Below, in pieces: positions 5,249 to 50,167 of a stretch of DNA of 64,000 nt (positions are counted from its first letter, which is position 1; each line of letters opens with the position of its first letter). Where the stretch lies: IMG/VR virus record IMGVR_UViG_3300042897_000994, positions 1 to 64,000 of that record; one strand, 5' to 3'. The notes below the pieces were generated by a model. It worked only from the letters and a program-made list of their open reading frames with translations. It was not told the DNA's origin and ran no database searches. This stretch comes from a virus. Position numbers and translations under genes: made by a program.

Positions 5249-5777
5249 TAAAGGTGATCAGATTCATTGTTTTTTAACTTCATATACGCATCCGAAGATC
5301 TTTCTTCCGGTAAAAGCTATTATTAAAGAAACTCAATGGGATACTGTAAATCCTAAGTATCTTATTAAAGTTTTAAAATTTTACGATTCATATCTTTTTC
5401 TGAGAAATACTCTTTTTGAAATGAATTTTTCTAATTCTTTTGAAAAGAGAGCTCAACCTCTACCTATAAAAAAGGAAGACTATAAAAGAAACAAAGAGTT
5501 GGAAACTCAGATGTCATCTGAAGATCCGCGTTTTTATATAGTAGTAGATTCTATATTGGCGGTAAAGACTTATAATGATCTATCAGATCTTTTTAACAAT
5601 TTACAATTTTTTCTAATATCAAGAGAGCTTTCTGAATTAAAAGAACTAATGACTAGAACCGTTTATCGAGGTTCTTTTAAAATTGATACTGAAAGAGAAT
5701 TTTCTATTAGACTCAAGAATGCGTTTGGAGACAAGTCCAAAGATTTAGATATTGATAAATTTTTAGATTCCCTTTAA
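5226..5777 (+). CDS. Hypothetical protein
   Basis: The ATG at 5226 (MKKHRIFNKG) is preferred over the track start at 5124. Confidence 0.7.
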   Translation: MKKHRIFNKGDQIHCFLTSYTHPKIFLPVKAIIKETQWDTVNPKYLIKVLKFYDSYLFLRNTLFEMNFSNSFEKRAQPLPIKKEDYKRNKELETQMSSEDPRFYIVVDSILAVKTYNDLSDLFNNLQFFLISRELSELKELMTRTVYRGSFKIDTEREFSIRLKNAFGDKSKDLDIDKFLDSL

Positions 5778-6172
5778 GGTTTTTCCTTTTGAACTAATCC
5801 ATCAGGATGTTCAGCCGGTGTATAGATTACATATAACTTTAGATCTTCATCTCCATCATTAATGATGTTATGCTCTGTGCCAGCTGGTATTACTACTGCG
5901 TCATTAGTTTTAAATTCAAACTCTTTTCCGTTTAAAACTGCTTTACCAGAACCTGCTTCAACTCTTAAGAATTGATCTCCTTTTTTATGAACTTCGCTAC
6001 CTATTTCAGTACCTGGTTTGATGCTCATTAAAACAAGTTGGCTATAAGGCCCTGTAAAAAGAACCTTTCTATAGTTTTCGTTTTCAACTGTAGCTGTGTC
6101 TATATTTTCAAGCCAATAATCTTCGCTTGATTTTTTTTCTTCATTTAGAAATTCTTCGAATCTTTTGAGCAT
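5774..6172 (-). CDS. Cupin-domain protein with an N-terminal capsid-targeting-like peptide
   Basis: QLVLMSIKPGTEIGSEVH..DQFLRVEAGSG and VVIPAGTEHNIIN cupin motifs. N-terminus MLKRFEEFLNEE. The only minus-strand gene. Confidence 0.85.
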   Translation of the reverse strand: MLKRFEEFLNEEKKSSEDYWLENIDTATVENENYRKVLFTGPYSQLVLMSIKPGTEIGSEVHKKGDQFLRVEAGSGKAVLNGKEFEFKTNDAVVIPAGTEHNIINDGDEDLKLYVIYTPAEHPDGLVQKEKP

Positions 6173-6181
6173 TTTAACTTC

Positions 6182-6195
6182 TTTTTTTATATATT
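6182..6195 (-). promoter_or_regulatory. Putative late promoter AATATATA plus A-run (cupin gene)
   Basis: Reverse complement reads AATATATAAAAAAA just upstream of the ATG at 6172. Confidence 0.6.
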
Positions 6196-6222
6196 AAGAT
6201 ATTATGATAATCAAGTTAGGGG

Positions 6223-6237
6223 GATATATAAAAAAAA
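6223..6237 (+). promoter_or_regulatory. Putative late promoter GATATATA plus A-run
   Basis: GATATATAAAAAAAA just upstream of the baseplate operon. The motif recurs many times in the window. Confidence 0.65.
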
Positions 6238-6245
6238 TGTCCTAG

Positions 6246-8255
6246 ATGTCGTTAGTTGGAAAGCAAATTAATAGAATTACTGGAAGCGTAGAAGACTTTA
6301 ACGTAAATGCCGACGATATTAATTTGACTCAGGCTGTTAATGCTCTGAATGCAAATTCAAGCCTTAATTCTTCGTACGATAGTCTTTCAGCTCAGGCTGC
6401 TAAATCTTATTATACAAGAGAAAATAGTGATGAGGTAGATAGTTTTACGGTTCCGATTGGAGTTAAAAAACTTCCTCGATCGATTGCAAATACATATGCT
6501 CTTTTTCAATACAGAGGTATGTATGGGGCTTTGAATGAAGGATCGGATACACTGGCCAGTTCGTATTCTGATAACGTGAGTGGAGGTGGGTACAGAAGAT
6601 TAGTAGGTGGTGAACCTGCAGAAAATCCAACAGTTCAACAAATTCTTCAGTTTTTTGGTGATCAATCTGCAGATAAAAGCGGAGCTGGATTTGATGTTTT
6701 ATATGAACCTCAAGATTTTATTTTCTGTAAATACTACAGAAAAATCCCAAATAACTATCTAGTTACGTTGAGAAGATTTGGATCTCCGGCACCTGATAAT
6801 ATTTATAGCACTGCTGTTAGATATCAACCACAAGATTCTAATGGAAATGTGACCACAAATGGTCCTGCTCCCGCCGAAAATTTTCCGGTAGTTAAAACAA
6901 CTAAACCTGATATTGCACGAGCGGTAACTTGGATGGGAGAGACAACAGGAAATAAAATAGAAGAACTACTAAAGTTTACGTATGGATTTAACTATAAAGA
7001 TCAGGAAGGCACATTACAGGCTCACCAGAGACCAAATAACCAGGGTAGTGCTGAACAGTCTCCATTCTGGAATAAAATAGGTGGAGCGGGTAGAGCATTC
7101 TATCAACAAGTTTCAGGTGTAAATGCTGCTACTAAATGGAGAAATATCATAGGATCTGAGACAGGCGCTAATGATATTGACTGGTTAGGAACTACCTATG
7201 AAAACTATGTATTAGGACCTATCAACGTGATCAACAAAAACACAATTAGAGATACCGGTCTTAAATTTGAGCAGGATATCAAGCTCATATTTGAATATGA
7301 AATGAAATCTTTCAATCACATCAATCCTAAAGTTGCTATGCTTGATATGATGGCCAACTTGCTAGTCTTAACATATAATAATGCAAGTTTCTGGGGAGGA
7401 GCACACCGTTTCTACGGTAGCAATGGATATTCAATGCCGCCATTTGGTGATTTTTCAAAATTACAAAGAGGTGATATTGGCGGATTTTTAACCAGTGTAG
7501 TTAGTAATGTAACTACTAGAGTTAGAGATTCATTTATGGCTAAAGGTAAAGATGGTTCATATAGTCTTGATCCTAAAAAACTTGTGAATCAATTTTTAGG
7601 ATTCTTGAATAATGTGGCTGGAGACTTTCTCGGGCAATTTGCAATGGATAATTTCGGAGCTGGCCCAGCGGCAGTTGCGCTACCTGCACTTGTTAGCGGA
7701 GATCCACATGGATGTTGGCATGTAACAATCGGAAATCCTCTTAATCCTATTGCAATGATCGGAAATTTGCATTTAGAATCTTCAGACTTAACGTTCGGTC
7801 CTACTCTGGGTAGAGATGATTTTCCAACTTCGATGAAACTTGAAGTTGATCTTAAACATGCAAAACCTAGAGACAAAACAGATTTTGAAAGTATCTTTAA
7901 CGCAGGTAAAGGTAGACTTTACGCTACTGGATTTAATCAAGATATTTTGAATATTAAAGGGGTTGATTCCAGAGATAAAAGATCAGGCGGAAGCGGTGAT
8001 CCCCCAGGACAAAATCCAGGAGGTGCGGGCGGATCTGCAAATACTACAACAACTGGAAATAGTAGAAGAAAAACTCCTTCCAAGGGAGGAATTTCAGGAT
8101 CAGATCAACCTGCTACTGTTCTTTCAAATGCTCTAAGAAATCCTGCCGGTAGCATCTATCAGATGGGACAAGGATTAAGTGTTCAGAAGCTTAAAAACTA
8201 TGGAACGGATGTCGGAGAAGTTCTTAACCAAATAAGATTTAGAATTGACTCATGA
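6246..8255 (+). CDS. Baseplate or tail-tube-associated structural protein
   Basis: First gene of the baseplate operon, before gp53-, hub- and gp5-like genes. Exact orthology is uncertain. Confidence 0.45.
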   Translation: MSLVGKQINRITGSVEDFNVNADDINLTQAVNALNANSSLNSSYDSLSAQAAKSYYTRENSDEVDSFTVPIGVKKLPRSIANTYALFQYRGMYGALNEGSDTLASSYSDNVSGGGYRRLVGGEPAENPTVQQILQFFGDQSADKSGAGFDVLYEPQDFIFCKYYRKIPNNYLVTLRRFGSPAPDNIYSTAVRYQPQDSNGNVTTNGPAPAENFPVVKTTKPDIARAVTWMGETTGNKIEELLKFTYGFNYKDQEGTLQAHQRPNNQGSAEQSPFWNKIGGAGRAFYQQVSGVNAATKWRNIIGSETGANDIDWLGTTYENYVLGPINVINKNTIRDTGLKFEQDIKLIFEYEMKSFNHINPKVAMLDMMANLLVLTYNNASFWGGAHRFYGSNGYSMPPFGDFSKLQRGDIGGFLTSVVSNVTTRVRDSFMAKGKDGSYSLDPKKLVNQFLGFLNNVAGDFLGQFAMDNFGAGPAAVALPALVSGDPHGCWHVTIGNPLNPIAMIGNLHLESSDLTFGPTLGRDDFPTSMKLEVDLKHAKPRDKTDFESIFNAGKGRLYATGFNQDILNIKGVDSRDKRSGGSGDPPGQNPGGAGGSANTTTTGNSRRKTPSKGGISGSDQPATVLSNALRNPAGSIYQMGQGLSVQKLKNYGTDVGEVLNQIRFRIDS

Positions 8256-10275: not shown

Positions 10276-10278
10276 AAA

Positions 10279-10286
10279 GATAAATA
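10279..10286 (+). promoter_or_regulatory. Putative late promoter variant GATAAATA
   Basis: 4 nt upstream of the ATG at 10291. Differs from the T4 late consensus TATAAATA only at the first base. Confidence 0.45.
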
Positions 10287-10290
10287 TATT

Positions 10291-12638: not shown

Positions 12639-12640
12639 TT

Positions 12641-12931: not shown

Positions 12932-12938
12932 ATTCAAA

Positions 12939-12947
12939 GATATATAA
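12939..12947 (+). promoter_or_regulatory. Putative late promoter GATATATAA (S1 gene)
   Basis: Motif match about 25 nt upstream of the ATG at 12973. Confidence 0.55.
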
Positions 12948-12972
12948 TCTGTACACTTTTAATTTAGACTAA

Positions 12973-14097
12973 ATGCCTATACAAAAAATTCAAATTCTTC
13001 GAGACGAAGAAAACCCATTTGACGTAATTGAAACAGAAGTAGAAGTACCAAAAGGAAGTAAAATCCTATCAAATGAACCTTATGTTCTAGATGTACTACA
13101 CTATTACTTTAAAAATTCTGAAGTATCTTTCAAACCTATCACCGACAATGAAATTATAGATTCAAAAATAATCTATATTTCGGAGTCTTCTATTATTGTA
13201 GACATTAACGGAAAAGACAATGCCTACATCGATCTCCTAAAGGAGAAAATGTCTTCAAATGAATTCCGAATTGGAGACACTGTCAAAATTAAAGTTAAAA
13301 AAGGCCATAAAGAAGGAAGCATCGAAGCGAGCATTGGTGCAGCTTCTACACAGGGAAAGATCGAGGACTTAGTAAATTCAATCGGTTCTAAAACTGTAGC
13401 TTACAAAGCACAAGTTAAAGAACTTATCAACGGTGGATATTATCTAATGATAGACGATATAAAAGTATTTATGCCTGGTTCACTTGCAGGTATGAACAAA
13501 CTTTCAGATTTTGAAAGAATGCTGGGAAAAGAAATTATTGTAATGCCTGTAAACTTCTCCAAAGAAAGAAATATTGTAGTAGTTTCTCACAGAGAATATT
13601 TAAAAACTTTGGTCCCTGTTGCAATTGATAGAGTTAGTGAAAATCCAAATGATCTCAGAGAAGGTACAGTTACCGGAACTTCGGGTTCTGGGATATTTGT
13701 AGAGTTTGAAGAATGTCTAACAGGATTGATCACCGTAACCGAAATGGAAAGGTGTAAAACCGATTTCGAGAATGGAAGTATTAAACCTGGGGATTCTATT
13801 CAATTTAGAATTAAGCAAATCATTAGTGAGACTAAGATTATTTTAACACAAAAGGAGAGGGAATATAGTCCATGGGATGACATCGAGGATAGATACTCAC
13901 CCGAAACCAGAATCACTGGAAATGTAGTAAAGAAAGCATCTTACGGTCTCTTTGTTGAAATTGAAAAAGGCATCAATGGTCTTCTTCACTCATCAAACAT
14001 AAAGGGTGATAATTTTGAAGAAGGAGATTCAATCGATGTAATTATTACCAAGATAGATCCTGTAAATAGAAAAATAACCCTTAGAAGAAAAAGGTAA
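12973..14097 (+). CDS. rpsA: Phage-encoded ribosomal protein S1-like protein (four S1 domains)
   Basis: Repeated S1 motifs: IIVDINGKDNAYI, NGGYYLMIDDIKVFMPGS...IVVVSHR, GTVTGTSGSGIFVEF..LTGLI, PWDDIEDRY...GNVVKKASYGLFVEIEKGINGLLHSSNI...IDPVNRKITL. Confidence 0.85.
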   Translation: MPIQKIQILRDEENPFDVIETEVEVPKGSKILSNEPYVLDVLHYYFKNSEVSFKPITDNEIIDSKIIYISESSIIVDINGKDNAYIDLLKEKMSSNEFRIGDTVKIKVKKGHKEGSIEASIGAASTQGKIEDLVNSIGSKTVAYKAQVKELINGGYYLMIDDIKVFMPGSLAGMNKLSDFERMLGKEIIVMPVNFSKERNIVVVSHREYLKTLVPVAIDRVSENPNDLREGTVTGTSGSGIFVEFEECLTGLITVTEMERCKTDFENGSIKPGDSIQFRIKQIISETKIILTQKEREYSPWDDIEDRYSPETRITGNVVKKASYGLFVEIEKGINGLLHSSNIKGDNFEEGDSIDVIITKIDPVNRKITLRRKR

Positions 14098-14116
14098 AGG
14101 CTTAATCTCAGGTAAG

Positions 14117-14145: not shown

Positions 14146-14151
14146 GTGTGA

Positions 14152-14165: not shown

Positions 14166-14175
14166 GTCTACTAAT

Positions 14176-15459: not shown

Positions 15460-15462
15460 CAC

Positions 15463-38844: not shown

Positions 38845-39399
38845 ATGATACAGTCAGCTAGAAGTAATCAGTTTAGATTTAATTTTCCAAGAACTTTTGT
38901 TCCGCGGGTTATAGTAGATAAATACAAACCATATTTGCAAAGAATCCCGGGAAATATTGTCTATGAGCCGATCGATTTTATTAATTATTCAATACAGAGT
39001 CTAAGCTTTGTAGGATCTTCCTATGATTCAGTAGAACAAATTGATAATCCGGGAGTTAAAAGACAGTACAGAGGTAGTTTACCTACTGCTGAACTATACG
39101 GAAAAGAAATAACAGTGACATTTCAGTTGTTTGATGGTTTTTTTAATTACTGGATGATGACAGATATCTTTACTTATTACTATAATTTAGGTGGTCAGAC
39201 TCCTTATACACCAGAAGGAACTAGAGTACAATTTTTAGACTCCGAAGGAAATATTATGGTTACTGCAGGATTAGAAAGAGTTTTGTTTTCGAGCATTGCA
39301 GACTTGGAGCTGAATTTTTCTTCTAACACTGCAGAGTTTGTAACATTTGATTGCACATTCATCTATAATAAGCTAGACATTAAGCTTGAACTTCAGTAA
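38845..39399 (+). CDS. Tail tube terminator, gp3-like (tube fold)
   Basis: NQFRF...IQSLSF.G...ITVTFQLFDGFFNYWMM...LELNFS...TFDCTFIY matches the gp3/gp19 pattern. Confidence 0.6.
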   Translation: MIQSARSNQFRFNFPRTFVPRVIVDKYKPYLQRIPGNIVYEPIDFINYSIQSLSFVGSSYDSVEQIDNPGVKRQYRGSLPTAELYGKEITVTFQLFDGFFNYWMMTDIFTYYYNLGGQTPYTPEGTRVQFLDSEGNIMVTAGLERVLFSSIADLELNFSSNTAEFVTFDCTFIYNKLDIKLELQ

Positions 39400-39408
39400 T
39401 ATATAAAA
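39398..39408 (+). promoter_or_regulatory. Putative late promoter AATATATAAAA
   Basis: Overlaps the upstream stop codon and precedes 39423. Confidence 0.55.
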
Positions 39409-39422
39409 CAAATCAATCTCTT

Positions 39423-39779
39423 ATGAGAACATTTAGCGAATACATCAACGAATCTAACGAAAAAGAATTTAAACTTTTCGAATCTTCGATACATGAAGAA
39501 CTTACTCCTGAACAAGAAGCAAAGATTAACGAAGCTCTTGAGAAATTTATGGAGAAATATGAAGAAGGATATACTTTAGAAGAGCTTTCAGAAGAAATGA
39601 CTAACGAAGGAATCATCGGTTCTATTCTCGGTGGTTTAACTGGATTTGCTCTAGGTAGCACGGTTGGAAAAATGATAGCTAAAATTTTAGGAGTTGAAAA
39701 AGGTATTTTTTACGACATGTTAACCAGTAGACTTGTAGGAGCAGCTCTTGGAGCTTCTTTGGGCAAGCGAATTATATGA
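39423..39779 (+). CDS. Putative internal head protein: capsid-targeting-like peptide plus a glycine-zipper membrane segment
   Basis: N-terminus MRTFSEYINE. C-terminal GIIGSILGGLTGFALG...VGAALGASLG. Confidence 0.6.
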   Translation: MRTFSEYINESNEKEFKLFESSIHEELTPEQEAKINEALEKFMEKYEEGYTLEELSEEMTNEGIIGSILGGLTGFALGSTVGKMIAKILGVEKGIFYDMLTSRLVGAALGASLGKRII

Positions 39780-40399
39780 GATACGTAGGTATAGATTTTT
39801 CAATTAATAGTCCAGCAATCTGCATTTTAGAAAAAGATGCATATCACTTTGTAGGATTTTACAACGAAGAGGGAAAAAAGTTCGAAAAGAAAGACCCCTC
39901 TGATTATTCATATCACAGAAAGCTTCTTTCTCTCAAAGATGTAGATATCATACATTTCAGCAGAAGAAAAAAGAATGAAAATTATTCTGTCGATCAAAGA
40001 CAAAAAATCGAAGACAGTCACACTTTAGGGAAGCTAATAGCTGAGAATATTGGTTCCGAAAAAAATAAAGTAGGAATCGAAGGTTATAGCTATGGTTCGA
40101 AGGGAAATAGTTTTATAGATCTTATCTCTTTCAATTCTGTAATGAGACATGTATTGTACACGGATACGGATTCAGAGATTTTTGTTAGAACACCTAGTCA
40201 AGTTAAAGGATTAGCTGGAAAAGGAAATGCAAATAAGTCAATGATGTACGAATACTTTTGTCAGAATACAACGAAGGATCCGAATCTAGAAAAGTCTTCT
40301 TTTTGGAAATGGTGTATTGAACAGAAGTTCGTCGGAGAGATTCCGAAACCTATAGATGATCTGATAGACTCTTATTTTATCTCTAGATCTGTTCAGTAG
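39776..40399 (+). CDS. RuvC-like Holliday junction resolvase
   Basis: YVGIDFSINSPAIC, IEGYSYGS, P..VK..AGKGNANK and DDLIDSY acidic active-site pattern. Confidence 0.8.
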   Translation: MRYVGIDFSINSPAICILEKDAYHFVGFYNEEGKKFEKKDPSDYSYHRKLLSLKDVDIIHFSRRKKNENYSVDQRQKIEDSHTLGKLIAENIGSEKNKVGIEGYSYGSKGNSFIDLISFNSVMRHVLYTDTDSEIFVRTPSQVKGLAGKGNANKSMMYEYFCQNTTKDPNLEKSSFWKWCIEQKFVGEIPKPIDDLIDSYFISRSVQ

Positions 40400-40447
40400 A
40401 GCTCTGTAGCTCTTAGAGTCTTTCCTTCCCAAAACTTCAGATAAATT

Positions 40448-40475
40448 TTATAGTATGCGATCTGAGAAAGTTTAC
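40448..40475 (-). promoter_or_regulatory. Putative early/middle promoter on the minus strand with no downstream gene
   Basis: Minus strand reads GTAAAC (40475-40470), N17, TATAA (40452-40448). Confidence 0.45.
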
Positions 40476-40510
40476 TGATCTCGTAAAAAAAATTTATTCC
40501 CAGAAAAAAT

Positions 40511-40537
40511 AAACTTTTCATCGTTTCCGGATATATA
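40511..40537 (+). promoter_or_regulatory. Putative overlapping early/middle (AAAC-N17-TATAT) and late (GATATATA) promoters for ssb
   Basis: AAAC at 40511-40514 and GATATATA at 40530-40537. Confidence 0.55.
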
Positions 40538-40670
40538 TTATGTAAGGTTTTTTTAAGGGCAACTTTTATTTTTTATGGCAATTCGCGGCAAGTCTAAAAT
40601 TTTTTAGGAGCTTTTTTAAACTTCTTACGGCAAATCTTTATTAATTAAACAACAAAAAAGGCAAATTAAA

Positions 40671-41591
40671 ATGGCAAATGAATTCGACATTTTCAATCTA
40701 GGGGTCAATGACATTGACACCTACACAAGAGAAGCTTCCGGCGGAAGTGATCTCTTCAAACCCACAGCAGATCAAGGTAAAGACGGAGTCTACAAAGCAT
40801 TAGTTAGATTCGTACCTAATCCAAAGAATCCCCAAAAATCAATTATTAGAAAATTTGTTTATTGGCTGGAAGATGGTGCAGGTAACGGAGGTTACTATGA
40901 TTCACCTTCTACAGTAGGAGAAAAATGTCCTGTACAGGATCTTTTCTTTAAACTGAGAAATTCTGAATCGGCAGTAGACAAAAAGATGTCTGAAAAACTG
41001 AAAAGAAGAGAAATTTTCTATTCTTTAATTCAGATTATCAAAGACTCAAACAGTCCTGATCAAGAGGGTTCTATTAAAATTTTCAAGTACGGTTACAAAA
41101 TTAAAGAAAAAATTGATGCCGAGTTGAATCCAGAGTTTGATGAACCTACACAGGTTTTTGATTTATTCGAAGGTAAAAACTTTGAAATGATCATCACCAA
41201 ACAAGCTGGTTACAACAACTACGACTCATCAAAATTTCAAGGAAAAAGAACTCCAATTTTGGTAAACGGAAAAGCAGTTGAAAAAGATGCAGAAGGTAGA
41301 AAGCAAATTTTAGAATATCTAAATTCTTCTCCTTCTCTAGATTCTTTTGACTACAAACCTTGGGATGATGCAACTCGATCTAAAATTGAAGATATTTTGA
41401 ATCAATATAGATCTCCAGGTTCAGCAATATCCACGGTCTCTTCCAAGAAGAGCCAAACTTCTGAATCCGCATCATTTGATAGTTTTGGTTTTGATGAACC
41501 TAAAGCTTCGGCACCTGCAACTTCAACTTCATCGGCATCTGAAGAAGATTCGGATGATCTAGATGAATTCTTGAAGGGTCTTGACATCTAA
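40671..41591 (+). CDS. Single-stranded DNA-binding protein, T4 gp32-like
   Basis: ALVRFVP, SPSTVGEKCPV, KIFKYGYKIKEKI, FDLFEGKNF, YNNYDSSKF, and an acidic tail DDLDEFLKGLDI. Confidence 0.9.
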   Translation: MANEFDIFNLGVNDIDTYTREASGGSDLFKPTADQGKDGVYKALVRFVPNPKNPQKSIIRKFVYWLEDGAGNGGYYDSPSTVGEKCPVQDLFFKLRNSESAVDKKMSEKLKRREIFYSLIQIIKDSNSPDQEGSIKIFKYGYKIKEKIDAELNPEFDEPTQVFDLFEGKNFEMIITKQAGYNNYDSSKFQGKRTPILVNGKAVEKDAEGRKQILEYLNSSPSLDSFDYKPWDDATRSKIEDILNQYRSPGSAISTVSSKKSQTSESASFDSFGFDEPKASAPATSTSSASEEDSDDLDEFLKGLDI

Positions 41592-41593
41592 AA

Positions 41594-42667
41594 ATGCCAA
41601 CAAAATTGTCTACAGACAAAATAAGTCGGGAAGAGATAACTCTGAAGATTGAGCAGGTCTTAGACAGATGTCACGGCAATTTAGAAAAAAGAAGAGCAAG
41701 AGAATCTCACAGCAGGCTTAATTTTGCTTGTCCATATTGCGGAGATTCTTCTTCAGACATGAGAAAGAAGAGGGGCAACCTATACTGGGAGTCCCTCTCT
41801 TTCCATTGTTTTAATTGTAATAAACATCGAGATCTAGATGCATTTTTACGTGATTTTGATAATGGCTTCGAAGGAGAAAAAAGGCTAAGCTTAGTAAATT
41901 TCTTGAGAGAAAGAGCTACTTACAACATACCTAAAACTCTAGACTTTTATCTTTTTCAGAAAATAGAAGAGCTCGCAATTACCAAAGCAGAATTATTTTC
42001 TGCTCTCAATGTTTATCCGATAAATTCAAATACAAAACGAGCATATCCATATCTACAAAGCAGACTGTTAACTCATCGCCTTGAAAATTTTGGATATGAT
42101 CCAAAGAGAAGAACTCTATATGTATTTAATTTTAATTCTGATAAAACTAAGATCATAGGTTATCAGACTCGTTATTTAGAAGATTCTGCTTCCAAATATT
42201 TGAGTTATAATCTTTTTAGAATGAGAGAAAAATTGAATCAACCTGAAGTAGAAATAAATGATACTGATAAAGATTCAATAAATAGAATATCAATGCTGTT
42301 TGGTATTCTGCAAATAGATCTTTCTCGAATCTTCACCATCTTCGAAGGCCCCATAGATGCAATGTTTATGAAAAATTCTTTGGCTTTAACTGGAGTAAGC
42401 AAAAGCACATTTAACTTTGATGAACTTGATTCTGTAAGGTACATGTTAGATAATGATTATGAAGGAAAGAGAAAAATGGTTGAAAAACTAAAACTTGGAA
42501 AAAAGGTTTTTATGTGGAGAAAGTTTATTGAAGAAAATAGACTCTCTAGACATAAAATTAAGGACTTAAACGATTTAGTTAAAGTTGCATATAAAGAAAA
42601 AAGAGATGTTTTGAGAGAAATCAATCTTTATTTTACAGATAACTCAAAAGATCTAATATATGTATGA
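41594..42667 (+). CDS. DNA primase, T4 gp61-like
   Basis: NFACPYCGDS...KKRG...FHCFNC zinc ribbon; FEGPIDAMF and LDND TOPRIM motifs. Confidence 0.9.
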   Translation: MPTKLSTDKISREEITLKIEQVLDRCHGNLEKRRARESHSRLNFACPYCGDSSSDMRKKRGNLYWESLSFHCFNCNKHRDLDAFLRDFDNGFEGEKRLSLVNFLRERATYNIPKTLDFYLFQKIEELAITKAELFSALNVYPINSNTKRAYPYLQSRLLTHRLENFGYDPKRRTLYVFNFNSDKTKIIGYQTRYLEDSASKYLSYNLFRMREKLNQPEVEINDTDKDSINRISMLFGILQIDLSRIFTIFEGPIDAMFMKNSLALTGVSKSTFNFDELDSVRYMLDNDYEGKRKMVEKLKLGKKVFMWRKFIEENRLSRHKIKDLNDLVKVAYKEKRDVLREINLYFTDNSKDLIYV

Positions 42668-42872
42668 CAAGGTAATGGAAGATCTCGATAAATTTTTCGA
42701 TGAAAAAAATAATAGAGATAAAAAATTGAAATTTTTTGTTGAAATCGAGACTTCTGATGTTAATATAGAAGAACACCCCTTTATCTTTCCAGAACCAATC
42801 CAAAAGAAAAAAACTATAGTCAGGGTTGCGACTAAAAGAAAGGGTAAAGATAGCAAAGATAATCTATTCTAA
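42660..42872 (+). CDS. Hypothetical protein
   Basis: 70 aa, coupled on both sides, ends KDNLF. Confidence 0.65.
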   Translation: MYDKVMEDLDKFFDEKNNRDKKLKFFVEIETSDVNIEEHPFIFPEPIQKKKTIVRVATKRKGKDSKDNLF

Positions 42873-43312
42873 TGAATCGTGAAGAACTAGAAGCAAAAAC
42901 TCTTGAATTAGAAGAAACTCTAATCCGCGACAGAGATAAATGGAGCAATAAGATTAGAGAACTTATTGCTATGATGAAGAATGTAAATGACATTCCAGAA
43001 GCACAAGTATATATGCTTTCTTATCGTCAAATGCTACTTGATTCTATTTCTTCTTTTCAAACAAGCTTATACAAAAAGAATGTTAGCTTTGATACTTACT
43101 ATAAAAAGAAATTTAGAGAATACACTCTAGATTACGACATAAAATTGAACGGAGGTGAAAAGGAAAAGATGATTAGAGCCGATTTAACCCTCGTTCAAAG
43201 ACAAATACATCTTCTGGAATCTCATATTGATTATTACAGGGAGTGCATCAGAACTCTAGATAATATGGGGTTTGCTATTAGAAATAGAATAAGAGTTGCA
43301 GAAGAGTTTTAA
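42872..43312 (+). CDS. uvsY: Recombination mediator, UvsY-like
   Basis: Helical 146 aa ending LDNMGFAIRNRI, immediately upstream of the UvsW-like gene. Confidence 0.65.
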   Translation: MNREELEAKTLELEETLIRDRDKWSNKIRELIAMMKNVNDIPEAQVYMLSYRQMLLDSISSFQTSLYKKNVSFDTYYKKKFREYTLDYDIKLNGGEKEKMIRADLTLVQRQIHLLESHIDYYRECIRTLDNMGFAIRNRIRVAEEF

Positions 43313-43326
43313 AAAAATAAAGAAAA

Positions 43327-44835
43327 ATGGATTTAAGACTTTCTGATGATAAGAGATTTTTAATCATTGAAAGTTGTACTGAAATGGAGTACGAACAGCT
43401 AAAGCTGTCTCTGACTAAAAAGATCGATGGCTGGAGATTTCACCCTCTAGTTAAAAAGAAATTATGGGACGGAAATATCAGTTTCATAAAAGGAAATAAA
43501 ATTCCGGCAGGTCTCTGGAAAGAGGTACTCGACATTGGCCAAGAATATAGTTTCGTGGTTAATATGAAAGGTACAACTATACTTTTTGATTCTGAAATCA
43601 AAGAAGAAGAATTTATTGCATGGGCAACTGAATTCTTCAAAAAACATCCTAAATACAAACCGAGGGACTATCAAATTCAAGCAGCTTATAGAATTTTAAG
43701 ATATAGAAGATGTCTTGCAGAGCTCGCAACATCAGCCGGAAAGACTCTTATATCTTTTATGGTAATTGCGTATTTGTTAGAAGTTTTAAAGAAAAAGAGA
43801 ATACTCTTTATTGTTCCTAACGTATCTCTGGTTCTTCAAGCAACCGAAGATTTTGATGAATATAATTTAAAAGAGAGAGTACCTCTCAAAATTCAGCAAA
43901 TTTACGCAGGTGCAAAAATTAAAGCAAGTTCTAATATTGTAGTTGGAACATATCAATCTCTGGTCAAAAAGCCTGCAGATTATTATGAGAGCTTTGATGT
44001 AGTTATGATCGATGAAACTCACAAAGCAAAATCAAATTCAATAAGATCGATTCTTGATCAGTGCTGGCACTGTGATTATAGATTTGGTCTTTCTGGAACA
44101 ATTCCTAAAAGAGGAACTGTAGACAGATTAACCCTGATGGCATGTACTGGGCCTCTTATCACAAATGTAAGTGCTAATTATCTTCAGCAAGAAGGCCACG
44201 TTTCTCTTTGTAAAGTTCATATTTTTGAAATGGATTATGCTTCTAACGAACAAAAAGAAGCTTTCTATTTCTTGTCAAAAACTCCAGAAGACAGAAAAAA
44301 GCTTTTTTCCCTAGAACAGAATTTTATAGTAGGTTCTTTAAAAAGAAGAGAATTTATCACTAAAGTAATTGCTAGTTCGACGAACAATAGCTTGGTTTTA
44401 TTCTATCGAATTGAACAAGGAGAAGCCTTGTATAATGAGCTAAGACAACTTCCAGACAAAGAAGTCTACTATGTAGACGGCGGAACTGATAAGGATATCA
44501 GAGAAGTTTATAAGAAGAAAATGGAAGGTGGAGATAATGTAATTCTAGTTGCCTCATTTGGAACCTTTTCAACCGGTATCTCTGTACAAAACATTCATAA
44601 TATCTTCTTAACCGAATCTTTTAAATCTGAAGTAATTATCAGGCAGTCTATCGGTAGAGGTTTGAGAAAGCACAGCTCAAAATCAATGTTGAATATCATC
44701 GATTTTGTAGATGATTTTCGCTACAATGAAGGCGGCAAATATTGGACCAATTACTTATATAAACATTCAGAAACTCGAATAGAGATCTACAAAGACCAGA
44801 AGTTTCCGTATGAAGTGAAAAAATTCAAATTCTAA
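43327..44835 (+). CDS. uvsW: SF2 DNA helicase, UvsW-like
   Basis: PRDYQ, LATSAGKT, IDETH, GLSGT, TFSTGIS and QSIGRGLR motifs. Confidence 0.92.
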   Translation: MDLRLSDDKRFLIIESCTEMEYEQLKLSLTKKIDGWRFHPLVKKKLWDGNISFIKGNKIPAGLWKEVLDIGQEYSFVVNMKGTTILFDSEIKEEEFIAWATEFFKKHPKYKPRDYQIQAAYRILRYRRCLAELATSAGKTLISFMVIAYLLEVLKKKRILFIVPNVSLVLQATEDFDEYNLKERVPLKIQQIYAGAKIKASSNIVVGTYQSLVKKPADYYESFDVVMIDETHKAKSNSIRSILDQCWHCDYRFGLSGTIPKRGTVDRLTLMACTGPLITNVSANYLQQEGHVSLCKVHIFEMDYASNEQKEAFYFLSKTPEDRKKLFSLEQNFIVGSLKRREFITKVIASSTNNSLVLFYRIEQGEALYNELRQLPDKEVYYVDGGTDKDIREVYKKKMEGGDNVILVASFGTFSTGISVQNIHNIFLTESFKSEVIIRQSIGRGLRKHSSKSMLNIIDFVDDFRYNEGGKYWTNYLYKHSETRIEIYKDQKFPYEVKKFKF

Positions 44836-44836
44836 A

Positions 44837-44851
44837 GATATATAAAAAAAA
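44837..44851 (+). promoter_or_regulatory. Putative late promoter GATATATA plus A-run
   Basis: Upstream of the 44864/45713 gene pair. Confidence 0.65.
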
Positions 44852-44863
44852 TTATTTTTAAGG

Positions 44864-45697
44864 ATGCAACCAATACAGAAATTTTCTGATTACTTCAAAG
44901 GTTATCAGACTACACAAGAAGCTATTCGCGAAGCAGATCTTCAAAAAGAATACGGTGAAGTTTTCATGTCTCTTTTGAAAAAATATGGAGTTAGTAGTCC
45001 AGCAGAGCTAGACGAAGAAAAGAAGAAAGAATTTTTCGATGAAATCGGAGGTCTTTATAAAAAGGGAGAAGGTCAAACTGCTAAGGGCGAAGAATTAGTA
45101 GACACTGAAAAACCTGAGCCCGTTAAAGAAGAGGAAAATGAAGAAGAGGAAGAAGAAGACGAAGAAGGTGTGAAGATTCCTAAAAAGAAAGACGAAGAAA
45201 CAGCTGCAGAAATAGAAGCAGAAATCGATGATATGGGTGAACCTAAAGATTCTGAAGATAAAGGAGATGAAGTTCCTAAAGACTCAGAAGAAGTCGAGGT
45301 AGAAGTTGAAGAAGAACCTGCAGCACCAGAAGCTGGAACTGAGGTTGATAAAGAAGAAGATAAAGAAACTGACAAAGATATTGAAGCTGAGATTGATGCA
45401 ATGGGTGAACCTAAAGATTCTGAAGATAAAGGAGATGAAGTTCCCGCCGATGCTGAAGAAGTTGAAGTAGAAGTTGAAGAAGAACCTGCAGCACCAGAAG
45501 CTGGAACTGAGGTTGATAAAGAAGAAGATAAAGACACAGCAAAAGAAATCGAAGCTGATAAAGTTGAAATGGGTAAACCAAAGAAAGCTGTTATGAGTTT
45601 TGATGAATTTGTTTCTTCTAAGAATGAGTCTACTACCAAAGGAGAAGAATCCGAATTAGAGGATGAAGATTTGGATGATGTAGACGATCTTGGGTAA
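44864..45697 (+). CDS. Very acidic putative prohead core / internal protein
   Basis: LKKYGVSSPAELDEEKKKEFF motif, Glu/Asp-rich, capsid-targeting-like motifs at both ends. Confidence 0.55.
   Translation: MQPIQKFSDYFKGYQTTQEAIREADLQKEYGEVFMSLLKKYGVSSPAELDEEKKKEFFDEIGGLYKKGEGQTAKGEELVDTEKPEPVKEEENEEEEEEDEEGVKIPKKKDEETAAEIEAEIDDMGEPKDSEDKGDEVPKDSEEVEVEVEEEPAAPEAGTEVDKEEDKETDKDIEAEIDAMGEPKDSEDKGDEVPADAEEVEVEVEEEPAAPEAGTEVDKEEDKDTAKEIEADKVEMGKPKKAVMSFDEFVSSKNESTTKGEESELEDEDLDDVDDLG
45212..45583 (+). repeat. 168-bp (56-aa) intragenic tandem repeat, a little over two copies
   Basis: atgggtgaacc or atgggtaaacc at 45233, 45401 and 45569. Confidence 0.9.
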
Positions 45698-45712
45698 TCA
45701 CAAAAAAATGAA

Positions 45713-46843
45713 ATGAAGCACATTAAACTATTTGAAGAATTCTCGGCCACATTCGAGGCTCAAACCAAGCTAACACCTGAGCAAGAGAAGTTCTTAAATA
45801 GGTCAGTAGGAGGAACTTGGTCTTTGAATCCTCAGACAGGACTTGTTGATGTAGATGGCTATGTCAACTGTTCTAATGAGGGTCTACAAGATCTTAAAGG
45901 CGTCAGATTCGGGAACGTAAGTGGGAGTTTCTCGTGCAGCTATAATAAGCTCACAAGTCTGGCAGGAGCACCACAGACCGTTGGTAAGGATTTCCATTGT
46001 GATATGAATAAGCTCACCTCACTGGTGGGAGCACCACAGGCTGTTGGGGGGATAAATGCCTTTACTGTATCAGGCACTACGGGGAGTTTCTGGTGTATGA
46101 ACAATCAGCTCACCTCACTGGTGGGAGCACCGCAGGCTGTTGGCGGGGATTTCCGTTGTCATAACAATGTGCTCACCTCTCTAGAGGGAGCACCTCAGAC
46201 CGTTAAATGGGGTTTCCTTTGTAGTAACAATCAGCTCACCTCTCTAGTGGGAGCACCAAAGACCGTTGGTAAGGAATTCGATTGTAGTAACAATCAGCTC
46301 ACCTCACTGGTGGGAGCACCTCAGAAGGTTGGTGACGAATTCGATTGTAGAAATAATCCTCAACTTACCTCATTAGAAGGAGCGCCGAAAGCAAAGAGAA
46401 TTGCTAGTGATATTAATAAAACCACGGTGGCTCCGCGGTCTTTTTCTATTGCCAGCGAATTCGAGGATTATGAAAATGGCAAAACTTATGATCTACAGGG
46501 TGAATGGGAAGATTTTAATTTTTCTGTTAAAGGAGACACCGTAATCTTTTCTGGTAAAGCTTATATAGGTGATGTAAAAGGAAGTTATAGTGATAAAAGG
46601 GGTTTAGAAATGACCATGATGGTTGATATATTCACATTTGCAGATTGGTTTAAAGATAATCCTGTAAAGATCATATATAGAGTCAACAAAATCAAACCTG
46701 AAGATGTAATTGGTGATATTCATAACACCCTTGCCGCAATTAATGACTCTGGGACTGATTGGGAATCAGTAAAAGATGTTAGTAAATTTCTTAGAGATAA
46801 TGGATTAAAAACTACATCTAAAATATTAGAGCCTGAAGATTAA
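45713..46843 (+). CDS. Leucine-rich-repeat protein with a capsid-targeting-like N-terminus
   Basis: Starts MKHIKLFEEF. Seven LTSLxGAP units with linking VxxxFxCxxNx segments. Unrelated C-terminal domain. Confidence 0.85.
   Translation: MKHIKLFEEFSATFEAQTKLTPEQEKFLNRSVGGTWSLNPQTGLVDVDGYVNCSNEGLQDLKGVRFGNVSGSFSCSYNKLTSLAGAPQTVGKDFHCDMNKLTSLVGAPQAVGGINAFTVSGTTGSFWCMNNQLTSLVGAPQAVGGDFRCHNNVLTSLEGAPQTVKWGFLCSNNQLTSLVGAPKTVGKEFDCSNNQLTSLVGAPQKVGDEFDCRNNPQLTSLEGAPKAKRIASDINKTTVAPRSFSIASEFEDYENGKTYDLQGEWEDFNFSVKGDTVIFSGKAYIGDVKGSYSDKRGLEMTMMVDIFTFADWFKDNPVKIIYRVNKIKPEDVIGDIHNTLAAINDSGTDWESVKDVSKFLRDNGLKTTSKILEPED
45950..46390 (+). repeat. 63-bp (21-aa) LRR repeat array
   Basis: ctcacctcactggtgggagcacc-like cores at 45950, 46013, 46109, 46172, 46235, 46298 and 46364. 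Confidence 0.9.
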
Positions 46844-46861
46844 TCAAAATTGATTCTAGAT

Positions 46862-46893
46862 AAAAAAGAGGTCACCTATGGCCTCTTTTTTTT
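46862..46893 (+). terminator. Intrinsic terminator
   Basis: AAAAAAGAGGTCA-CCTA-TGGCCTCTTTTTTTT. Confidence 0.85.
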
Positions 46894-46946
46894 GTTTACA
46901 TAATTACTTATTATAATAAAAAAAGAATGCCCTAAAATGCACGAGA

Positions 46947-47402
46947 ATGAATTCGATGATTTTAATTGGTTCCCTGACCATCCCTTCAGTCAGCCCGCTA
47001 AACCTATTACAGGAACTATATCGGGAGAATCCCTGGAAGATGCTGGTATGTTGTCTATTTCTGAATCAGACAACCAGAAAGCAAGTCGACAAGATCCGTG
47101 AAGAATTTTTCTTAAGATATCCGTCTCCTCAAGATCTATTAAAAACTGGAGATGAAGAAATTGAAGATCTGATCAAATCTCTAGGGTTTAAAAGAGTTAG
47201 AACACAAAGACTAAAGAGATTCTCTCTAGAATTTATTTCTAAAGAATGGAAAGAACCTATTGAGTTACATGGAATAGGGAAGTATGCCCAAGAATCTTGG
47301 GAAATATTTCAGAAGCTCAACTTCAATGTTCAACCTACAGATGGAGCTTTAATCGATTATTTGAACTGGTTGGAAATATATAAAACAAATGGCAGGAATT
47401 AG
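46947..47402 (+). CDS. HhH-GPD DNA glycosylase, MBD4 catalytic-domain-like
   Basis: SPLNLLQE....PWKMLVCCLFLNQT, YPSP, LIKSLGF..VR, WKEPIELHGIGKYAQESWEIF and VQPTD (catalytic Asp) parallel the MBD4 glycosylase domain. Confidence 0.85.
   Translation: MNSMILIGSLTIPSVSPLNLLQELYRENPWKMLVCCLFLNQTTRKQVDKIREEFFLRYPSPQDLLKTGDEEIEDLIKSLGFKRVRTQRLKRFSLEFISKEWKEPIELHGIGKYAQESWEIFQKLNFNVQPTDGALIDYLNWLEIYKTNGRN
47375..47385 (+). promoter_or_regulatory. Putative late promoter inside the 3' end of the glycosylase gene
   Basis: AATATATAAAA just upstream of the ATG at 47389. Confidence 0.5.
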
Positions 47403-48540
47403 TACATTAGATTCTTTTTACAAAAAAGAGGGAAAAGAAAAACTAGATAATCTTCTCAAGAATTATGTAGTGATAGTTGAGAAGTTTTCAGCTTGTAATT
47501 TTTACATTCAAAGATCGGGTGATCAGGTTTCTTTTTATAAGAAAGATGATCAAAACATGATAGGACTAATAGATAGAACTTTTACGCAATTATACGAAAA
47601 GGCTATTTCCCATTTTTTGAAATTTGACTCTACGGACTTTCCAGAAAACTATAGATTTGGTTTTGAATATTTTCCAAATAATAAACCCGGAGAGATTGAA
47701 TATATCAGTATTCCTGAAAATTCTTTAGTTCTAACGAGAATAATGATTAAAAATTCAGCAGGTAAAACTGTAAAAGTAATTGATGATGATAAAGTTCTAG
47801 AAAACTGGGCGAGCATTTTAGACGTTTCATACAACACTCCAATTTTTTCTGGTGAGCTTTCTGATAAACAGAGAAATACTCTTGTAGAAATGGTGATTAA
47901 TTCTTCAGACAATGTAAAACGTAAATTTCTTTCTCTTTTTGAATCATATGAAGCACCAGCTCAAAGTGACACTTTCGATTCATATATCTTTAAAATTGTT
48001 TCACCGGGATCTGTTAAAAAATATAAATTTGTAGATGTTTCTGTTCCTCTCACTGAAAAAACTTCACAAGAAGCAAGACGAGGTTCTGTGGATTCCGTTT
48101 CAATTTTAATCTTAGATGTTTTAGATTTTATCGAAAGTGAAGGACTTCCTCAACTGTTATCGGGCTCAAATGACGAGGAAAAATACATTGATCTTATTTC
48201 CCAACTGTACAATAGGTACATGAGTAAATATGAGAGTGGAGTTGCTGGAATGACTTTTGATAAAAAGGACTTTGCAGATTCTCCAGAGTTTGATGTTAAT
48301 TTAAACATGATTAAAAATCCAACAACTCTACGGTTTTTGGAAAAATCGGATACCAACAAGACTATATTTAAAATTCTTCTAAACTCATTTAGAAAGTATA
48401 GAGATACAGAAATGGCAAATGATGTCTTAACCCCACAGGTATTAAAAGACTTTAATCTTAGAGTTGATGAAATCAAATCTCTAAGCAAGAAAATCTCAAA
48501 TGATATAAAGACCTTTTCTGAATTTGTAGGTGATATATAA
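47389..48540 (+). CDS. RNA-ligase-like (nucleotidyltransferase-fold) protein, possibly degenerate
   Basis: VIVEKFSACNF resembles motif I of Rnl2 (EKxxGxNF); FGFEYF resembles motif III. C-terminal IKTFSEF. Confidence 0.4.
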   Translation: MAGISTLDSFYKKEGKEKLDNLLKNYVVIVEKFSACNFYIQRSGDQVSFYKKDDQNMIGLIDRTFTQLYEKAISHFLKFDSTDFPENYRFGFEYFPNNKPGEIEYISIPENSLVLTRIMIKNSAGKTVKVIDDDKVLENWASILDVSYNTPIFSGELSDKQRNTLVEMVINSSDNVKRKFLSLFESYEAPAQSDTFDSYIFKIVSPGSVKKYKFVDVSVPLTEKTSQEARRGSVDSVSILILDVLDFIESEGLPQLLSGSNDEEKYIDLISQLYNRYMSKYESGVAGMTFDKKDFADSPEFDVNLNMIKNPTTLRFLEKSDTNKTIFKILLNSFRKYRDTEMANDVLTPQVLKDFNLRVDEIKSLSKKISNDIKTFSEFVGDI

Positions 48541-48545
48541 AAAAA
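48532..48545 (+). promoter_or_regulatory. Putative late promoter in a hairpin loop
   Basis: TTTGTAGG-[TGATATATAAAAAAAT]-CCTATAAA, just before the ATG at 48557. Confidence 0.65.
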
Positions 48546-48556
48546 TCCTATAAAAT

Positions 48557-50167
48557 ATGATAAGTAGTTTCGACGACTTTTTAGATGAAGGTAAAGTACA
48601 AGTTAAAAGACGGTATACTGAAAACTATCCGTCCAAACATGTTTATAGCGGAGCTAAAATCAGGAATGCAGTTCTTTCTGCAATTAAAGACGGCGTTGTA
48701 ACCGAAGAAGAATTTCAAAAGATTTTAGACGAAGCTGGAGCTTCTAGAATTTGGAAATACAAATACAATCATCTTTTTGACGTCAACGAAGACGGCGTAA
48801 AACTTTCATCAAAAGGTCTTAAACTCTGTCCTGTTGAAAGAATTGAAGAAGCTGATAAGATTGATGAAGTTTCAACTTCAATAGCTCAACAAAGACTAAT
48901 GGGAATGGCCTATGCCTTGAAAACGGGCGAAATGGACCCTGAGGATGCTAGTGATGAAGTAAAAGATTTAGCTAAAAACATGACAGTTAAACAGCTAAAA
49001 GATTTTGCATCTACCAAGCATAAAGGTCTTCCCTATAAAAAAGAAAATGAAAATCTTACATTACCAGATGTCCCCGGCATGGGAGCCGTTAAACTACCCG
49101 GAAACCCAGGAACATCTACACAGTTTGATAATCAAGAAACCGGATCTGGTGATATTCCTTACCCGATACCAAACAAGAAAAAAATGAAAAAAATGAAACT
49201 AATTCCAGAATCTTTTGAAGAGTTTTCAGAATCTCTAATCAATGAAGCATTTGCATCTTCTATTTTACAAAATTTAACTGCAGGAAAGTCAGATCTTAAC
49301 AAGAAATTTTTTGATGCATTGTCAAGAATGGGAATTGCTGCATCCGATATTGAAGATGATCAAATAATTGAATTGAAAACCAGCGATGCCAAAAAATATA
49401 CAAAGCAAAACCCCAATTCCATATTGATTTATTATTCTACTACAGAAAAGCCAAATCCGTTTGCTGGTAGTGGAGCATGGAGTAGTTCTAAAACTATCCC
49501 AGGTGATATGCCTTTAGCCGTTGTAAAAGATAAGATATACATGGGATTAAAATATGACAGATACTCTAGAGGAAGTAAACCAGAGTATTCTTTAGTTCAG
49601 AATCCAGGCGGCACTATAGGAATCGATAAAGCTGGAGGAACTTATGGTTCGGGATTAACGACATTAGATAAAATAGCAGCGGTGTCTGATATTGTGTATG
49701 TAATTGATCCTACTGTAATACCTTCTTCTTCTGCAAAAAGAGCAGAAAGAAAACAGTCTAGATCCGGAGCCACTGCATATGTTAGTGATAAAGATTTTAA
49801 AGCTCAAAATAAAGCAAGATACGATGTTATTCTAGCAGACAGAGCTTCTAAATTGCCACTAGATAAAGAAGTTGGTGAAGCTATCGATATTTTGGCTTCT
49901 CACATCAAAGATGCTATCTCTTCAGGAGCTAAAACTAGATATGGGGAAATCCTTATCGGTACAGATCCAAAAGGAAGAGAAATTAAAATGAGTGATGCCA
50001 GTAGCATCATGAGAAATCTTTTAGATGATTTTGGAAGATATGTAGATTATACAAATAAATCTGCAGAAGAAGGTAGTAGCAGATACTATGAAGCAGAATC
50101 TAAGCAATATGCTAAATCAGTTTCGGATAGACTTCGAAAAATTAAGAATAAAGACTATGCTTGGTAA
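48557..50167 (+). CDS. Putative internal head polyprotein containing a DUF3008-like module
   Basis: Starts MISSFDDFLDE. SIAQQRLMGMA...LKDFASTKHKGLP is DUF3008-like. Internal MKKMKLIPESFEEFSESLINE. Confidence 0.6.
   Translation: MISSFDDFLDEGKVQVKRRYTENYPSKHVYSGAKIRNAVLSAIKDGVVTEEEFQKILDEAGASRIWKYKYNHLFDVNEDGVKLSSKGLKLCPVERIEEADKIDEVSTSIAQQRLMGMAYALKTGEMDPEDASDEVKDLAKNMTVKQLKDFASTKHKGLPYKKENENLTLPDVPGMGAVKLPGNPGTSTQFDNQETGSGDIPYPIPNKKKMKKMKLIPESFEEFSESLINEAFASSILQNLTAGKSDLNKKFFDALSRMGIAASDIEDDQIIELKTSDAKKYTKQNPNSILIYYSTTEKPNPFAGSGAWSSSKTIPGDMPLAVVKDKIYMGLKYDRYSRGSKPEYSLVQNPGGTIGIDKAGGTYGSGLTTLDKIAAVSDIVYVIDPTVIPSSSAKRAERKQSRSGATAYVSDKDFKAQNKARYDVILADRASKLPLDKEVGEAIDILASHIKDAISSGAKTRYGEILIGTDPKGREIKMSDASSIMRNLLDDFGRYVDYTNKSAEEGSSRYYEAESKQYAKSVSDRLRKIKNKDYAW

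Follow-up and report, generated by a model that had tools for sequence, protein, structure and literature searches.

Results

The tag and the proteins that carry it

This study examined a short peptide tag that recurs on otherwise unrelated proteins of a virus represented by IMG/VR record IMGVR_UViG_3300042897_000994. The record comprises 160,937 bp, with an estimated completeness of approximately 50% (CheckV), and its first 64 kb (64,000 nucleotides) constitute the stretch analyzed here, hereafter called the window. The tagged genes of the window and their associated features are listed in Table 1, and genes are designated by coordinate. The initial annotation had placed the pattern F[ESD][ED][FY] in six unrelated proteins of the window, namely a cupin and the products of 39423, 44864, 45713, 47389, and 48557, and all six translations agreed with it, including the internal copy ESFEEFSESLINE of the 48557 protein.

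Chance tests were performed on the whole record (174 called open reading frames [ORFs]; 51,904 residues). ORF calling split a collagen-like gene at 2-3277 into four ORFs, which did not materially change the statistics. The pattern F[ESD][ED][FY] occurred 24 times, and seven of these matches lay within the first 15 residues of a protein (binomial p = 1.3e-4), whereas 300 shuffles averaged 0.33 N-terminal matches and never exceeded 4. The pattern [FY][QESD][ED][FY][LIV]xE occurred eight times; six matches were N-terminal by the same definition and one was located in the scaffold described below (binomial p = 4e-7 for the N-terminal bias; shuffle mean, 0.00). The motif is real and not a product of chance.

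Six proteins were classified as strict members, namely the cupin (5774, minus strand) and the products of 39423, 48557, 110047, 116210, and 107563, and three as looser members (45713, 106098, and 44864). Those located beyond the window were additions to the six proteins originally listed; their tags are MLKKFQEYIKE (110047), MKHIMLFEEFIGE (116210), MNKIKLFEEFIRE (107563), and MPQIKNLDSFLSE (106098). The tags take a short form, M-x2-3-[FY]-x-[ED]-[FY]-[LI]-x-E, or a long form, MK[HY]IK-x-F-E-E-F-[LI]-x-E, and seven members show the predicted cut-site context (L/I)-x-E, as LNE, INE, LDE, IKE, IGE, IRE, and LSE. Because the codons vary from tag to tag, conservation is at the peptide level. Outside the tag, similarity was detected only between two RimK paralogues, which are ATP-grasp ligases encoded in tandem at 106098-108552 and are both tagged (Pfam E=5e-38 and 3e-26). 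A PDB sequence search with the 110047 protein revealed no relative.

A late-promoter-like motif upstream of the tagged genes

Each tagged gene or its operon had also been described as preceded by a late motif, and the sequence bore this out. The motif, [GA]ATATATAAAA(A/C)AA, lies 21-25 nt upstream of approximately 20 start codons, including those of the tagged genes or their operons, with a spacing of 12 nt for 47389. The motif-bearing genes include those encoding the portal and the protease-scaffold protein and other large, late-looking genes; in the case of the major capsid protein (MCP) gene, the motif is 100 nt upstream. A scan of the whole record located ATATATAA within 45 nt upstream of 26 of the 174 genes. 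It preceded seven of the nine tagged genes but only 19 of the 165 others (Fisher p = 2e-5), and the two tagged genes that lack their own motif are second in motif-headed units. From its resemblance to the T4 sequence TATAAATA and from the genes downstream of it, we infer that the motif is a late promoter. The region at 6173-6245 contains two divergent copies, 41 nt apart from start to start, which serve the cupin gene (minus strand) and a 669-aa gene, 6246 (plus strand).

Tags in related phages and in T4

The public genome closest to the record is LR756500.1, an uncultured phage of 462 kb with a GC content of 24%, the MCP of which is 62% identical. The next closest are the Lak phages and huge phages of 630-735 kb, followed by Tenacibaculum phage pT24 and Sphingomonas phage PAU. 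This ranking of relatives identifies the record as a distant T4-superfamily phage of a huge-phage lineage. A megablast search of positions 39000-50200 against phage records produced no match.

In LR756500.1, 27-43 proteins, depending on the strictness of the pattern, begin with MK[YF]Ixx[YF]x[ED]F[LIV]xE, compared with 0.1-1.2 in shuffles, and the aromatic residue is always at position 7. With the tag removed, the 43 tagged proteins fell into 36 families. In LR745206.1 (635 kb), 22-28 proteins begin with MIKK[YWF]xQFIxE, compared with 4.9 in shuffles. A matrix built from the LR756500 tags ranked 116210, 107563, and 45713 among the top matches in their own genome. The tagged cargo of the relatives, as assigned by Pfam, includes leucine-rich-repeat (LRR) proteins and an ATP-grasp ligase, which are classes also tagged in the record; a tagged LRR protein and a tagged ATP-grasp protein both occur in LR756500. 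Other tagged cargo of the relatives comprises a DUF2201 metallopeptidase-VWA protein, an RNA ligase of the T4 Rnl1 type, a 2H phosphoesterase that weakly matches Acb1 and is fused to RNase T, and a protein weakly matching DHH. Several genes preceding tagged genes in LR756500.1 share a second peptide, the C-terminal tail ADDFGF[FL]DN* (for example, those ending just before 12212, 13446, 14298, 197835, and 323012).

The tag was not enriched in pT24 or Lak-A1, nor in PAU under the pattern used. Approximately 23 proteins of PAU, a cultured phage, many of them encoded around the protease gene (e.g., 110719-113735), begin with MKT[LI]x[QK]L[YF]E[AS], and approximately 13 Lak-A1 proteins begin with MNKNIKKLLESLFDDD; each set constitutes a leader family of its own. 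Leader families seem to be general in these large phages.

As a control, the tag pattern was applied to T4, in which it retrieved ipII and ipIII (MKTYQEFIAE), which are annotated as internal proteins of the virion. N-terminal clustering added ipI, which starts with MKTFKEF and has ITE at residues 17-19. The pattern also retrieved T4 gp61.1 (NC_000866, 18966-19130, minus strand), a 54-aa hypothetical protein whose gene adjoins the primase gene and whose N-terminus, MKTFKEFIKE, resembles a capsid-targeting sequence (CTS). The proposal that a portable tag similar to the T4 CTS is attached to unrelated late proteins was thus upheld by the tag-free bacterial cupins described below, by the dozens of tagged proteins in the relatives, and by the recovery of ipII and ipIII. 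The tag exists, and it is N-terminal, conserved as a peptide, portable, and found across the lineage.

Head genes and the protease-scaffold fusion

The record encodes a Gp23-family MCP (71586-73271; PF07068, E=8e-33), a T4-type portal (PF07230, E=2e-76), a gp4-like head-closure protein, and a gp2-like DNA end protector. The prohead protease is encoded by the ORF at 69662-71482, which matches Peptidase_S77 (gp21-type; PF03420, E=1.3e-16, above the cut-off) and the phrog_207 head maturation protease (E=1e-43). At the N-terminus of the MCP, INE|A occupies residues 5-7 and LNE|N occupies residues 42-44, and the LR756500 MCP has INE|A and LYE|N at equivalent positions. N-terminal sequencing of the PAU MCP indicated that approximately 65 residues are removed (PMC5646251); its translation has LME at residues 62-64, adjoining the reported removal point.

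The product of 69662-71482 comprises 606 residues, of which the N-terminal third is the protease, followed by an acidic linker and a repeat scaffold. Residues 263-402 consist of ten 14-residue units (YSNYLGENLDKSIS, YANYLAESLQNGIG, YQNYLAENVQKGID, and so on) with the consensus Y-[STA]-[END]-Y-[LVI]-A-E-N-[LV]-[DN]-[KQ]-x-I-x. The repeats were present in all 120 homologs examined, mostly as 9-12 units (range, 6-12), and the LR745206 scaffold has twelve units, most of which read YSEY[LI]AEN[LV]DKNI. One long helix was predicted for the repeat region, with low confidence. The core of the repeats, Y-x-[END]-Y-[LIV]-A-E, corresponds to that of the tags, and its form Y-S-E-Y-L-A-E is close to Y-Q-E-F-I-A-E of T4. 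The 18 matches to [FYW]x[EDNQS][FYW][LIV]xE in the genome comprise six N-terminal tags, seven scaffold repeats, and others. The Tyr-repeat scaffold and the tag were found together in three genomes and were both absent from Lak-A1, pT24, and PAU, although six genomes are too few to establish co-occurrence. What is new here is a protease fused to a repeat scaffold that shares the core of the tag, and this sharing suggests that cargo may dock by imitating a scaffold unit. A complex prediction for scaffold residues 250-410 and the tagged cupin, run without controls, yielded an ipSAE of 0.00, which has no bearing either way on binding.

A nearly invariant in-frame methionine of the fusion protein (Met221, position 70322) opens MNYVKVEDFDKYSEYLKTE just before the repeats and could be the nested start of a separate scaffold protein. 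The first residues from Met221, MNYVK, resemble the beginning of the long-form tag (MKYIK or MKHIK).

Directly 3' of the MCP gene and behind a late motif, 73360-74697 encodes a 445-aa helical protein rich in Lys, Glu, and Ala, which has a tag-like start, MMKKVLTLEEYDQIIE|G. The protein is a candidate abundant internal head protein, possibly DNA-binding; no orthologue was found in LR756500 or LR745206.

The tagged proteins of the window

Table 1. Tagged genes of the window, with their tags, modules, and late motifs.
Feature	Position	Strand	Basis
Cupin_2 protein, 132 aa, with N-terminal tag	5774..6172	-	Pfam Cupin_2, E=1e-16
Cupin tag MLKRFEEFLNE, short form; predicted cut after LNE	6140..6172	-	Translation and pattern match
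Putative late motif AATATATAAAAAAA of the cupin gene	6182..6195	-	Sequence
Divergent second putative late motif, for gene 6246	6223-6236	+	Sequence
Putative late motif AATATATAAAACAA, before 39423	39398..39411	+	Sequence
118-aa protein with tag MRTFSEYINE (39423-39452), acidic helical part, and Gly-rich hydrophobic C-terminus	39423..39779	+	
Putative late motif GATATATAAAAAAA, heading the 44864-45713 unit	44837..44850	+	Sequence
Very acidic repeat protein, 277 aa	44864..45697	+	Translation
LRR protein, 376 aa	45713..46843	+	Translation and Pfam
Long-form tag MKHIKLFEEFSATFE of 45713	45713-45757	+	Translation
Putative late motif AATATATAAAACAA, 12 nt before the 47389 ATG	47375..47388	+	Sequence
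383-aa protein, a doubtful member, family unassigned, ending in IKTFSEFVGDI (48505-48537)	47389..48540	+	
Putative late motif GATATATAAAAAAA, overlapping the last codons of 47389	48532..48545	+	Sequence
Modular protein, 536 aa, with N-terminal tag MISSFDDFLDE (48557-48589)	48557..50167	+	Translation and pattern
DUF3008 module of 48557	48875..49042	+	PF11450, E=3e-9
Copy of the MCP N-terminal arm in 48557	49067..49168	+	34 residues; BLASTP E=5e-9
Internal tag MKKMKLIPESFEEFSESLINE of 48557; predicted cut after INE	49184..49246	+	Alignment to LR756500

Homologs of the cupin number in the thousands. The bacterial homologs (Patescibacteria, Chloroflexi, and others) comprise 126-128 aa, begin at the barrel, and are tag-free, whereas approximately 13 phage-like metagenomic cupins have a 12-25-residue N-terminal extension with tag variants, including MIKRFDEFLNEE, MNAFKKFQEFLDEE, MKKFTNYIKENKEE, and MKHIKEFSQF. 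Because the bacterial homologs lack the tag and the phage-like copies carry it, the tag is an add-on to the cupin. The AlphaFold (AF2) model of the tagged cupin has a short helix at residues 5-13 (pLDDT ~60), a linker, and a confident barrel. The 39423 protein matches phrog_15565 from residue 1 and has the densest [LI]xE sites in the genome.

The 44864 protein carries a long, degenerate leader, MQPIQKFSDYF...AIRE (44864-44932), which is collinear with that of the LR756500 homolog r269766 (ending in SILE|A), and both leaders end in [IL]-x-E|A. The tag-like MSFDEFVSSKNE near its C-terminus (45593-45628), which the initial annotation had counted as a further copy, had no comparative support. That annotation had also reported a C-terminal copy in the 47389 protein, for which no Pfam match and no PDB sequence relative were found. 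The N-terminus of this protein, MAGI..., is not a tag, because it is conserved with the LR756500 orthologue. Its C-terminal KTFSEFVGDI aligns with FKTFGDYIIMKE (KTFGDY) at the collinear position of the orthologue, which continues past this point into an extra HxGH nucleotidyltransferase-like domain. The C-terminal match is no more than suggestive, and the membership of 47389 among the tagged proteins is doubtful.

The 48557 protein consists, in order, of the tag, approximately 95 residues, the DUF3008 module, the copy of the MCP arm, a run of lysines, MKLIPESFEEFSESLINE, and a 300-residue C-terminal part, for which a PDB sequence search revealed no relative. Its residues 171-204 are 56% identical to MCP residues 57-90; this copy might be a capsid-interior anchor or a decoy cut site. 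In LR756500, the genes matching the parts of 48557 are separate, and the DUF3008 protein terminates in ...GSGDILLNKKKKLKFIKTFNEFKTEYK; thus, both the copy of the MCP arm and a complete tag-like peptide keep their position. The internal MKKMKLIPESFEEFSESLINE aligns with the C-terminal LKFIKTFNEFKTEYK of LR756500 r265261, so that the internal tag originally proposed for 48557 is retained in the orthologue as a C-terminal tail. This conservation argues for either a tag that functions away from the N-terminus or a cut site that has been conserved, and 48557 may be processed in the manner of a small polyprotein.

Discussion

Comparison with known systems

Mullaney and Black reportedly described the CTS carried by T4's internal proteins IPI, IPII, and IPIII in 1996. 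The internal proteins of T-even phages share only the CTS, which targets them to the scaffold core, and IPI* blocks a host nuclease (PMC3012670; PMC5694885). The T4 CTS is removed by gp21 (PMC5694885). The tags of the record are similar in that a 10-19-residue N-terminal leader is placed on unrelated proteins, with a core of aromatic-x-acidic-aromatic-[IL]-x-Glu (Y-Q-E-F-I-A-E in T4; F-E-E-F-L-N-E, F-S-E-Y-I-N-E, and F-Q-E-Y-I-K-E here). Both phages encode a protease of the S77 family, a capsid protein of the Gp23 type, and a T4-type portal; in both, the tagged genes are scattered outside the head cluster, and one pattern recovers both sets. Every feature of a T4-type CTS system that can be read from a sequence thus appears to be present in this phage. 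However, T4 has three or four tagged proteins, whereas at least 9-10 are known, from sequence alone, in this half genome and 25-40 in its relatives. Two leader forms, recognizable enzymes as cargo, and conserved internal copies also set the record apart, and its protease and repeat scaffold form a single fusion protein, whereas gp21 and gp22 of T4 are separate and gp22 lacks such repeats.

In the giant phages phiKZ, 201phi2-1, and SPN3US, many head-internal proteins are processed after Glu by a T4-related prohead protease, and a targeting role is assumed for the conserved N-termini of paralogues that have diverged (PMC5694885; PMC10052503). Propeptides of the phiKZ type are mostly 80-160 residues long, are cut at [AS]-x-E, and are mainly shared by paralogues, whereas the tags described here are short, T4-like, and found on unrelated folds. 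The tags also resemble the cargo-loading peptides of encapsulins in being short terminal peptides on unrelated cargo of an HK97-fold shell. Encapsulin peptides suffice to load diverse enzymes into the shell; however, they typically lie at the C-terminus, bind directly to the shell protein, and stay attached to the cargo, and their system includes no protease, scaffold, or DNA. The C and Nu3 genes of lambda contain protease and scaffold within one reading frame. The fusion described here has the same arrangement, with the conserved Met221 at MNYVKVEDFDKYSEYLKTE as the candidate scaffold start, whereas neither Tyr repeats of 14 residues nor a resemblance of such repeats to cargo tags is known from lambda.

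Proposed mechanism

On the basis of these findings, we propose that the tag is a T4-type capsid-targeting leader, an N-terminal peptide of 10-15 residues on unrelated late-made proteins. The leader, probably a short amphipathic helix, would direct the protein to the scaffold core while the prohead assembles. The docking site would most likely be the scaffold half of the protease-scaffold fusion, in which each repeat is also a potential cut site. The gp21-type (S77) protease would then cut after the Glu of [LI]-x-E and remove the leader. The trimmed cargo would stay inside the head alongside the DNA and, when the next infection begins, some or all of it would exit together with the DNA. We infer the steps of docking, cleavage, packaging, and ejection. 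Candidate cargo includes the cupin, the LRR protein, the two RimK-type ATP-grasp ligases, the modular DUF3008 protein, the small Gly-rich hydrophobic protein (39423), the acidic protein (44864), and others.

We consider it likely that the tag is a head-loading leader removed by the protease. The phage probably packages the tagged proteins and perhaps injects them; delivery of most of the cargo to the host appears about as probable as its opposite. The known T4 mechanism is probably extended in this manner to a megaphage lineage. The tag is further proposed to imitate one scaffold unit because of the shared core and the co-occurrence among the sampled genomes. The scaffold would be a chain of identical 14-residue units, and a protein bearing a single imitation unit, whether N-terminal or between its modules, would be co-assembled, cut free, and delivered with the DNA. 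We put forward this more specific scheme tentatively, as possible but short of an even chance.

Several observations weigh against the proposed mechanism. The 9-column matrix of the full repeat failed to retrieve the tags specifically in two of the three genomes (this one and LR745206), and the likeness between tag and scaffold is therefore limited to the 7-residue core; it may be convergent, reflecting a helix with a cut site. Homology between tag and repeat is not claimed, given this result. The 45713 protein, which had been listed as tagged and does possess a long-form tag with a high matrix rank, lacks a canonical [LI]-x-E cut site after the core (TFE), and in the 44864 protein IRE is reached only at residue 23. 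In LR745206.1, approximately 100 further proteins begin with MKYLKxF[NE]E, beside the MIKKYxQFIxE set. In addition, gene absences are weak evidence because the record is only approximately half complete.

Alternative explanations

The tag may load the prohead as proposed, with most of the cargo serving as assembly helpers or DNA-packing fillers that are degraded, expelled, or kept, rather than as host effectors. This explanation overlaps with the head-loading leader proposed above, differs from it only at the final step, and is in our judgment a minority possibility, at about one chance in a few. The extremely acidic repeat protein 44864 fits such a role, as does the tag-like start of the Lys/Glu/Ala-rich 73360 protein, the gene of which adjoins that of the MCP; the copy of the MCP N-arm in 48557 suggests a capsid-bound role, and the T4 core proteins gp67, gp68, and gp22 are cut up (PMC5694885). 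However, no assembly role is obvious for the cupin and the two RimK-type ligases, or for the RNA ligase, 2H phosphoesterase-RNase T, DHH, and LRR proteins of the relatives, and the tagged proteins of T4 are ejected, with IPI* acting in the host (PMC3012670).

The second alternative is that the leader is a signal unrelated to head loading, such as a site at which a modifying enzyme docks, a sorting signal for another compartment, an export signal, or a pro-peptide that holds late enzymes inactive until the protease becomes active, with only a superficial likeness to the T4 CTS. The approximately 100 LR745206 proteins with a related leader are many to package as head cargo, so leaders may serve, or also serve, another purpose. 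Nevertheless, a search of the half-complete record for a radical-SAM gene was negative, the end of the tag has the cut-site context of the T4-type protease encoded by the phage, the promoter motif is common to the tagged genes and the head genes, and the tag core is that of T4 ipII and ipIII and also that of the phage's own scaffold repeat. We therefore regard this explanation as unlikely.

The motif is most improbably a by-product of composition, common descent, or a DNA or mRNA start signal in an AT-rich genome without Shine-Dalgarno sites: such a genome favors starts such as ATG AAA, and the long-form tags of 45713, 107563, and 116210 look alike, but shuffles produced approximately zero N-terminal matches compared with the six observed, outside the tag only the two RimK paralogues resemble each other, differing codons preserve the aromatic and acidic residues, conserved internal copies exist, and the bacterial cupin homologs are tag-free.

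Implications of the proposed head-loading leader

Literature searches found no answer to what the CTS binds and no published description of CTS-like tags in huge phages or megaphages. The likeness of tag and repeat offers a concrete and testable answer to the former question. If the scaffold-imitation scheme holds, the injected set, tens of proteins per genome, would be readable from the sequence, and a new cargo protein would require approximately 12 added codons. Should the tag act as it does in T4, sequence alone would yield a list of the proteins carried into the cell by uncultured large phages, and factors for first-minute counter-defence and host takeover are expected among such proteins. 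Because the protease-scaffold family has thousands of metagenome members, with more than 5,900 homologs counted, the mechanism would be widespread in nature. Loading of foreign proteins into such capsids may be another use of the tag.

Other genes of the window

The window also encodes a ribosomal protein S1 homologue at 12973-14097. The collagen-like Gly-X-Y protein at 2-3277 (plus strand) has more than 900 residues in triplets and is open at the 5' end of the record; the GC content of its gene is 52%, compared with approximately 33% elsewhere. We take its C-terminal end, by eye, to resemble the self-cleaving chaperone domain of tail fibres.

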